Shown one piece after another: positions 10,958 through 11,645 of a DNA stretch of 64,000 nt. A program made the translations under genes and the position numbers. Source of the DNA: Escherichia phage SHEFM2K; sequence record PQ390715.1. One strand, 5' to 3'. The notes beneath the pieces are model-generated. The model made no database searches, was not told the DNA's origin, and was given only the letters and a program-made list of their open reading frames with translations. Position 1 is the stretch's first letter; every line of letters starts with the position of its first letter.

Positions 10958-11245
10958 TTATTCAACAATCCCCAACTTCACAATCTCATACCCGTCCAGA
11001 TAGCCGTAGGAACACTCAGGTGTTTCATAAGATGAACCATCATGGATGCCCTGGCATTGACTTTTGGAATTCTCAAGCAATCGTTGTAGTACTGATACGT
11101 CATCAAGAACGTAATACAAGTTAGCATATAGGTCAGTTACAATACAGTACTCCAACATATCAAATGTATCAATCGAAATTTCAACCTTAGCAAATCGTTT
11201 CTTTTCTTTATTATACAGTGCGTACATATTAATCTCCATAATCAA
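10958..11245 (-). CDS. hypothetical protein
   Basis: 95-aa ORF; overlaps upstream kinase-like ORF by 17 nt. Confidence 0.5.
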   Translation of the reverse strand: MIMEINMYALYNKEKKRFAKVEISIDTFDMLEYCIVTDLYANLYYVLDDVSVLQRLLENSKSQCQGIHDGSSYETPECSYGYLDGYEIVKLGIVE

Positions 11246-11645
11246 GTTTAACTAACTTACCATTCAGATAACCAAAGTTTTCTGGCTTCGCATCTGAATA
11301 AAAGAAGTCAGTACTTAACTCTGAATTCAATGCTAAAGCACACAACTCCACCCAAAATAAACCCCTATGTTGAACTGGCTTACAACGTTTCTGTACAGTT
11401 ACTAGTCCAGTACATGATGACCACAAAGTAGGACAGATACCAGTATCACTACGATTGGAGTACTGCATCCACGAACGTTCATTGAGGTTAGCTATCATCC
11501 CTGTTAAGAATAGCTTCCAACTTTTAAAGGTTGGAATCTTGATAGCATATTCCCCAATGAGGATAACAGTTCGTGTTGCACCTTTAAAATCTATATTCAT
11601 ATTTTTAATTAGAAGAACACAAACCAAGTCCAGAACAAATTCCAC
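11229..11645 (-). CDS. protein-kinase-like mini-protein (N-lobe through DFG-like motif)
   Basis: ..YAIKIP.. (beta3 Lys), ..DAKPENFGY.. (catalytic-loop-like D-x-KPEN), ..KLDYGD (DFG-like) at C-terminus. Confidence 0.4.
   Translation of the reverse strand: MEFVLDLVCVLLIKNMNIDFKGATRTVILIGEYAIKIPTFKSWKLFLTGMIANLNERSWMQYSNRSDTGICPTLWSSCTGLVTVQKRCKPVQHRGLFWVELCALALNSELSTDFFYSDAKPENFGYLNGKLVKLDYGD

Follow-up and report, generated by a model that had tools for sequence, protein, structure and literature searches.

Phage proteins with a predicted kinase fold that ends at the DFG motif, as represented in Escherichia phage SHEFM2K

The kinase gp0.7 of phage T7 (T7K) has a kinase domain comprised of residues 1-242 that is active in vitro and hyper-promiscuous, and a recent study found that its mass phosphorylation disables the defences of bacteria (PMC13645617). 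In its translation, the DFG-like motif DPV was counted at residues 213-215, directly before Ser216. Here we analyse the gene of a smaller kinase-like protein of 123 amino acids (aa), hereafter the mini-kinase, located in a stretch of 64,000 nucleotides (nt) from Escherichia phage SHEFM2K (PQ390715.1; the window). The window is 96-98% identical to the Asteriusvirus jumbo coliphages slurp01, phAPEC6, G17, 121Q and PBECO4. The exact 123-aa protein is already recorded as a called gene, annotated as hypothetical in Asteriusvirus records (the Sharanji copy is WNN14422.1).

T7K and the mini-kinase are alike in being phage-encoded and in missing most of the C-lobe that follows the DFG position. The latter has roughly half the length of T7K, which carries a helical region at its N-terminus and, ahead of the catalytic loop, a long insert; the T7K kinase domain ends ~27 residues past DPV. 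The motifs differ as well, D-x-H-S-x-N and DP[VL] in T7K in contrast to D-x-K-P-x-N and DYG in the mini-kinase. Comparison by hhalign gave a probability of 0.05, BLASTP was negative, and the mini-kinase showed no match to phrog_2828, the T7 gp0.7 family, to which it does not belong. No link to T7K was thus found, as neither sequence nor profile similarity was detected and the two proteins fall into different PHROGs.

Structural neighbours of the mini-kinase are found in the Ser/Thr kinase core, represented by TTK/Mps1, PknB, JAK and BRAF. With regard to these, it lacks the activation segment, APE, helices alphaF, alphaG, alphaH and alphaI, and the HR preceding the catalytic Asp, while a G-x-T-R loop replaces GxGxxG; its ~120 aa are under half of the usual 250-300 aa. 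The small type III effectors OspG/NleH and HopBF1, which act in eukaryotic cells, have matched chains of 169-176 residues that are only 9-14% identical to the mini-kinase, and they keep helices past the DFG motif. In RIO/Bud32 and archaeal ArkI the helical C-lobe is reduced but real, the catalytic loop is devoid of Lys, and no sequence-level relationship to the mini-kinase was detected. A full-text search of the available literature revealed no description of a phage family of protein kinase-like (PKL) proteins that are ~120 aa long or devoid of the C-lobe and end at DFG; a 2026 PKL survey discards sequences below 150 aa. What appears to be new here, judged from sequences and predicted structure, is that a known kinase fold occurs in a form reduced to an unprecedented degree, an architecture conserved throughout a family.

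Predicted fold and conserved residues of the mini-kinase

At this locus, the longest-frame scan of the window returned two open reading frames (ORFs), 11229..11645 (-) and 10958..11245 (-), both extended too far at the 5' end. The former had been taken by an earlier sequence-only reading as a truncated kinase-like ORF. It exists as a frame, but the gene within it begins at ATG 11600 and not at GTG 11645, because the preceding 83-aa ORF has its stop at 11611..11609, homologues of distant phages align from the Met of this ATG (they begin with MNID), and a 372-nt coding sequence (CDS) is annotated in the Sharanji, ph0011 and PBECO4 records. The product reads MNIDFKGATRTVILIGEYAIKIPTF...SDAKPENFGYLNGKLVKLDYGD, with D123 as the last residue and the stop TAA at 11231..11229; the stop directly after the DFG position is confirmed. 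Paralogues of the mini-kinase were not found within the window.

In the translation, A19-I20-K21, E41, D103-A-K-P-E-N108 and L119-D-Y-G-D123 follow each other in kinase order, as had been noticed from the letters for all of them but E41, and their spacing and conservation in the family agree with this order. Distances from K21 to E41, D103 to N108 and N108 to D120 are 20, 5 and 12 residues, compared to 19, 5 and 13 in PKA. Conservation was assessed in an alignment of 136 diverse members of the family phrog_4301, 30-97% identical to the window protein, in which the kinase-like motifs make up the most conserved columns. K21, E41 and D120 are invariant. G7 and R10 (134 of the 136), N38 and G110 are conserved in at least 98% of members, and a level of at least 90% is also reached by P23, F31, G34, G65 and Y121 (123 members). 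Position 9 is T or S in 130 sequences, K105 is present in 119 and G122 in 120. The residues that position ATP and Mg (beta3 Lys, alphaC Glu, Asn/Ser and DFG Asp) and the catalytic Asp/Glu and Lys are under strong constraint.

Two subtypes are distinguished by positions 103, 108 and 118, one with D-x-K-x-x-N and K-[IL]-DYG, to which the window protein belongs, and the other with E-x-K-x-x-S and A-[IV]-DYG. Position 103 is D in 90 members and E in 45, and position 108 is N in 94 and S in 41 (135/136 for either pair of residues). Their co-occurrence is near-perfect, with D/N in 89 members, E/S in 39 and mixed pairs in six, and may merely mirror two clades.

The AlphaFold2 model of the mini-kinase, based on 15 sequences, has a mean predicted local distance difference test score (pLDDT) of 91 and a predicted template modelling score (pTM) of 0.80. 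Strands are predicted at residues 2-4, 10-15, 18-23, 58-61, 68-71, 109-112 and 115-118, and helices at 28-43, 79-92 and, a short one, 97-101. The model comprises an N-lobe beta-sheet with alphaC and the K21/E41 pair, followed by D103...N108, strands 109-112 and 115-118, and D120-Y-G. The helical core of the C-lobe, from alphaF onward, is absent, and the protein ends one residue past the DFG glycine. A Foldseek search against PDB produced 1862 matches, the best 50 of which are all kinases. Among the matches listed, only the top one, Legionella Lpg2603, reaches E <= 0.001 (5e-4); next come TTK, CDK2, WbdD and p70S6K. The fold search in BFVD disclosed members of the family and viral kinases, and a homologue from Ralstonia phage RP12 bears the name "Protein kinase domain-containing protein".

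At the sequence level, TTK was the best match of the family profile against PDB, at a sub-significant E of 0.09; the profile alignment places "vDaKPeNFGylnGrLvkiDYG" in exact register with "sDlKPaNFlivdGmLklIDFG" of TTK. A Pfam scan of the 136 members returned only three weak PIP49_C/FAM69 matches (best E 0.0011), and phmmer against PDB with the mini-kinase only a chance chromodomain match. The fold can confidently be predicted as kinase-like because of the AlphaFold2 model, the Foldseek matches and the in-register TTK alignment, in accordance with the kinase character proposed in the sequence-only reading. The kinase motifs exceed chance, since they coincide with the most conserved columns, the profile follows the register of TTK, and the model matches kinases.

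The DFG motif as the natural end of the family

The mini-kinase matches the hidden Markov model (HMM) of phrog_4301, a phage protein family without assigned function, at E 1.9e-43; its residues 4-122 align to positions 42-167 of the 225 in the profile. The longer proteins of OBP and Kc263 fall into the same PHROG. By tblastn, homologues were located in 119 phage records, including Asteriusvirus, the T4-like Dhakavirus and Tequatrovirus, Seuratvirus, Nipunavirus and Abidjanvirus, as well as jumbo phages of Aeromonas, Erwinia, Klebsiella, Ralstonia and Pseudomonas. A profile search throughout 1.84 billion representatives yielded 1213 clusters, defined at 50% identity, at E <= 1e-3, 642 of them at E <= 1e-10. 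Pattern-based scans of bacterial reference genomes found nothing of this family. Homologues in Kc263, AH04, pEa_SNUABM_5 and RP12 have been annotated automatically as Ser/Thr kinase or protein kinase.

In the best 150 of the 1213 clusters, protein length is nearly always 110-135 aa and the match extends to the last residue. The DYG glycine is followed by one residue in 91 of the 136 aligned members, by none in 18 and by two or three in 15; the 109 members with at most one residue are spread across many phage lineages. Inspection of 44 genomic loci showed a stop immediately past DYG in most lineages, and about 30 independently sequenced Asteriusvirus genomes share the identical stop position and arrangement. 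Longer tails occur in PaMx11/NP1-like phages (16-28 aa; 16 aa in PaMx11 and NP1) and in the OBP/Kc263/AH04 subgroup (34-134 aa), where they reach 34 aa in AH04, 128 in Kc263 and 134 in OBP. Neither Pfam domains nor kinase C-lobe motifs were found in these tails. Rare N-terminal extensions are likewise devoid of Pfam domains, and the extensions of longer members were rejected as a missing C-lobe or fused domains. Among Asteriusvirus orthologues, the ratio of nonsynonymous to synonymous substitution rates (dN/dS) is 0.03-0.08 at dS of 0.3-0.5, and the mini-kinase is under purifying selection.

The natural end of the family is the DFG motif, and the activation segment and alphaF-alphaI are absent by design. 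To call the gene truncated is misleading, because the stop after DFG represents the native architecture, and phrog_4301 genes should not be marked as truncated or frameshifted in annotations. The tight constraint on C-terminal length suggests that the free end matters, and one may speculate that it keeps the active site accessible or takes part in an interface; this conserved free C-terminus past the Mg-binding Asp may belong to the active site or to an oligomer interface.

Aeromonas phage PS1 carries family copies at 2142-2501, 2501-2866 and 4294-4662 of its locus (L003). Copies 1 and 2 are arranged in direct tandem, the stop codon of the first abutting the start codon of the second. Copy 3 was deduced from three tblastn places and a 122-aa CDS, while ORF clustering recovered the two tandem copies. 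Multiple copies in one phage are a possible hint of hetero-oligomers.

Function and alternative explanations

We favour, with moderate confidence, the explanation that the gene is intact and autonomous and encodes a minimal PKL domain acting as a Mg-ATP phosphotransferase. A minimal kinase was one of the options named in the sequence-only reading; fold and conserved active-site residues speak for it, the functional class being read solely from the conservation of catalytic residues. The domain would be comprised of a five-stranded N-lobe with the G-x-T-R loop and K21, alphaC with E41, one alphaE-like helix, the Ser/Thr-type catalytic loop D103-x-K105-x-x-N108 and DYG with D120, where it ends. 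Mg-ATP would be bound through K21-E41, N108 and D120, and the gamma-phosphate would be transferred by D103/K105. The canonical docking elements (activation segment, P+1 loop and alphaG) are absent, and the active site is therefore expected to be open. The most likely function would be that of a stand-alone, open-faced Mg-ATP phosphotransferase. With an open substrate face, specificity would be low or would have to come from a partner or from self-association; a partner would also need to shield the surface that alphaF normally buries. Protein substrates are favoured because D-x-K-P-x-N is the signature of Ser/Thr protein kinases. By analogy to T7 gp0.7, it would probably act on proteins of the host or the phage that are modified in infection, in the course of host take-over or counter-defence.

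Several observations weigh against this explanation. No kinase match was obtained in Pfam at E <= 1 (including PF00069, RIO1, Kdo and APH), nor in NCBIfam or PADLOC. E-x-K-x-x-S takes the place of D-x-K-x-x-N in about a third of family members, which could indicate a different chemistry. No kinase without alphaF is known to be active. In canonical kinases this helix serves as the anchor of the catalytic loop and of both hydrophobic spines, and a monomer this small might for that reason be unstable or inactive alone. The genomic context of the mini-kinase indicates no substrate. In CMSTMSU and in the Salmonella phages SD-1_S14, SD-2_S15 and SD-6_S16, the mini-kinase and the 89-aa gene next to it are split or shortened into fragments of 84-102 aa. 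Such disruption would mean that the gene is dispensable; the split copies represent either dispensable genes or assembly indel errors.

A stronger proposition, which we put forward only tentatively and would sooner doubt than adopt, is that the mini-kinase is a self-sufficient, active kinase of ~120 residues ending at DFG, the smallest known, with alphaF-alphaI of the C-lobe dispensable for phosphotransfer, and that the family is a widespread, promiscuous phage tool. Among kinase-like domains, the mini-kinase may be the smallest known. An active protein would reduce the minimal catalytic unit of the protein-kinase fold to the N-lobe, catalytic loop and DFG, in ~120 aa, and would place a second, far more widespread phage kinase family beside T7 gp0.7. 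If it is also promiscuous, virulent and temperate phages would possess, in more than 1200 clusters, a so far unrecognised tool acting on host proteins. If inactive, it would still belong to a large family of phage ATP-pocket proteins. Since members are small, abundant and easily expressed, the question of activity is directly testable.

Among the alternatives, a non-catalytic nucleotide-binding protein is unlikely, yet it accounts for several features. The protein could be a pseudokinase-like regulator, a decoy or a nucleotide sponge, with the N-lobe pocket binding ATP or a signalling nucleotide, or it could bind and inhibit a host protein. The entire part of the C-lobe that binds substrates and anchors the spines is missing, no kinase HMM recognises the protein, and it is small, stand-alone and phage-specific, like many anti-defence binders, and is carried as a moron in prophages. 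However, pseudokinases and pure binders usually lose at least one catalytic residue, while D/E103, K105, N/S108, K21, E41 and D120 are kept in over 100 clusters at 30-50% identity. It is quite improbable that the protein is an active PKL enzyme whose chemistry is not that of a kinase or whose substrate is not a protein. The candidate reactions would be AMPylation, known from SelO, glutamylation, known from SidJ, and the phosphorylation of small molecules, nucleotides or RNA, for which APH and ArkI offer comparisons. Against this stand the catalytic loop, as D-x-K-P-x-N-F-G is the form of Ser/Thr protein kinases, the sequence-profile matches, which are limited to TTK, a protein kinase, and FAM69, and neighbour associations that vary across lineages.

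The two remaining alternatives, both raised in the sequence-only reading, deny that the gene is complete. In a split kinase, the 123-aa protein would provide the N-lobe and catalytic loop and the 89-aa protein encoded downstream the C-lobe. The pair is co-inherited in all Asteriusvirus genomes examined, and a spacer of 1 nt and a ribosome-binding site inside the first gene suggest translational coupling. Nevertheless, this is very improbable, and it was rejected on phyletic distribution: the family of the 89-aa protein, phrog_8563, is confined to 38 phage records and six protein clusters, all from Asteriusvirus/K64-1-like jumbo phages, compared to the 119 records and 1213 clusters of the mini-kinase. 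In other lineages unrelated genes or none follow the homologue: RNA ligase 2 (RnlB) in JS10, a 97-aa ORF and a tRNA cluster in G4507, an NTP hydrolase in PaMx11 and ZC01, DenV in NP1, and unrelated small ORFs in Skure, PS1 and others. All-versus-all ORF clustering within 3 kb of the 44 loci disclosed no neighbour family shared beyond close relatives, so a conserved partner gene was dismissed and co-occurrence as expected for a two-gene kinase was not seen. The 89-aa protein is predicted with low confidence (AlphaFold2 pLDDT 56) as five beta strands and one helix, in contrast to the all-helical alphaF-alphaI region, and its weak collinear paralogue at 13100..13354 (27% identity, E 0.007) adjoins no kinase. 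A homologue 45% identical to the mini-kinase (P0013; 6001-6372 in loci L046/L047) occurs in lambdoid prophages of Salmonella enterica between the lysis gene Rz and the terminase gene Nu1, in a classic moron position, solitary and flanked on either side by 270-400 nt without coding sequence. The mini-kinase is independent of the neighbouring gene. A frameshifted or truncated remnant of a full kinase, or a sequencing indel near 11229-11245, is hardly credible. The few relatives with tails of 16-134 aa past DYG could be taken in its favour, but these tails are devoid of Pfam domains and C-lobe motifs, and an indel within 11229-11245 would destroy the invariant DYG motif. The stop shared by the Asteriusvirus genomes and most of the family, together with the low dN/dS, effectively refutes remnant, frameshift and sequencing error alike.

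Gene neighbourhood and further features of the window

Features of the locus are listed in Table 1. The overlap of 17 nt between the two ORFs reported previously is an artefact of the longest-frame scan, since ATG 11227, preceded by GGAG, is the most likely start of the 89-aa gene; the true distance from the mini-kinase stop to this start is 1 nt. In Sharanji and ph0011 this gene is annotated as 270 nt.

Table 1. Coordinates of the mini-kinase gene, its motifs and other features in the window
Feature	Position	Strand	Evidence or remark
Mini protein-kinase-like gene (phrog_4301)	11229..11600	-	123 aa plus stop; ORF, homologues, 372-nt CDS elsewhere
G7-A-T9-R10, beta1-beta2 loop, counterpart of the glycine-rich loop	11571..11582	-	Conservation; flanking AlphaFold2 strands
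A19-I20-K21, VAIK-type lysine, beta3	11538..11546	-	K21 136/136; AlphaFold2 strand 18-23
E41, alphaC-like helix, predicted partner of K21	11478..11480	-	136/136; AlphaFold2 helix 28-43
D103-A-K105-P-E-N108, Ser/Thr-type catalytic loop (D-x-K-P-x-N)	11277..11294	-	Conservation; TTK register
L119-D120-Y-G122-D123, DFG equivalent, extreme C-terminus	11232..11246	-	D120 invariant (136/136); stop 11229..11231
GGAG, ribosome-binding site of the 89-aa gene	11234..11237	-	Within the last mini-kinase codons; 7-10 nt upstream of ATG 11227
89-aa gene (phrog_8563), separate, not part of the kinase	10958..11227	-	phrog_8563 E 8.6e-25
Hairpin and U-run, terminator-like, after the 89-aa gene	10839..10868	-	RNA fold -17.3 kcal/mol, z -4.1
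Promoter-like site for denV, extended -10	10831..10860	-	11/12 positions
Sigma-70 consensus promoter-like site, TTGACA-16-TATAAT	12691..12718	-	12/12 consensus positions
T7K-like gene, 224 aa	15159..15833	-	tblastn E 1.6e-6 to T7K residues 68-216

Judged from sequence signals, the sigma-70 promoter-like site is the likely start of a unit, 12642..10958, that contains the mini-kinase. The predicted unit would comprise a 184-aa ORF, a 58-aa ORF, the 83-aa membrane-protein ORF, the mini-kinase and the 89-aa ORF. No comparable promoter-like site was seen before the mini-kinase in the consensus scan. The 83-aa membrane-protein gene, 11609..11860 (-), is absent in PBECO4, and the 58-aa ORF abuts the mini-kinase there. 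At the opposite end, the hairpin overlaps the -35 of the denV promoter-like site, forming a compact terminator/promoter junction at 10831..10868 (-); the hairpin is absent from the terminator list of the consensus scan.

DenV, a pyrimidine-dimer glycosylase of the T4 endonuclease V type, is encoded at 10368..10802 (-), one gene downstream of the mini-kinase. In Nipunavirus NP1 (1821-2312 in locus L050) and in five metagenomic siphovirus loci, denV comes immediately after the homologue and overlaps it; the close relatives DoCa3, PaMx11 and ZC01 lack it at this place. Because two lineages have this adjacency and close relatives lack it, it probably reflects an insertion hot spot and not a functional link.

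The window also encodes a 224-aa T7K-like protein, unrelated in sequence to the mini-kinase, with the motifs DIHSSN and ITDPLS and an end 22 residues past DPL. It corresponds to WNN14432.1 of Sharanji, the T7K homologue that was reported for that phage along with "another kinase" (PMC11895373), and it is probably the T7K homologue of jumbo phage G17 mentioned in PMC13645617. On both sides its gene is flanked by paralogues of 137 and 139 aa, 14688..15101 and 15870..16289 (both -), which share 39% identity (E 2e-31) and have signal-peptide-like N-termini. Three tandem, weakly paralogous membrane proteins of 112-122 aa are located at 13364..13732, 13710..14051 and 14061..14399 (all -); they carry a basic R..N[ILM]P[EN][KR] tail, with pairwise E of 1e-9 to 4e-3. 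Finally, a 474-aa ORF at 8225..9649 (-) contains several internal repeats of ~60 aa, and its C-terminal segment appears nuclease-like by eye.
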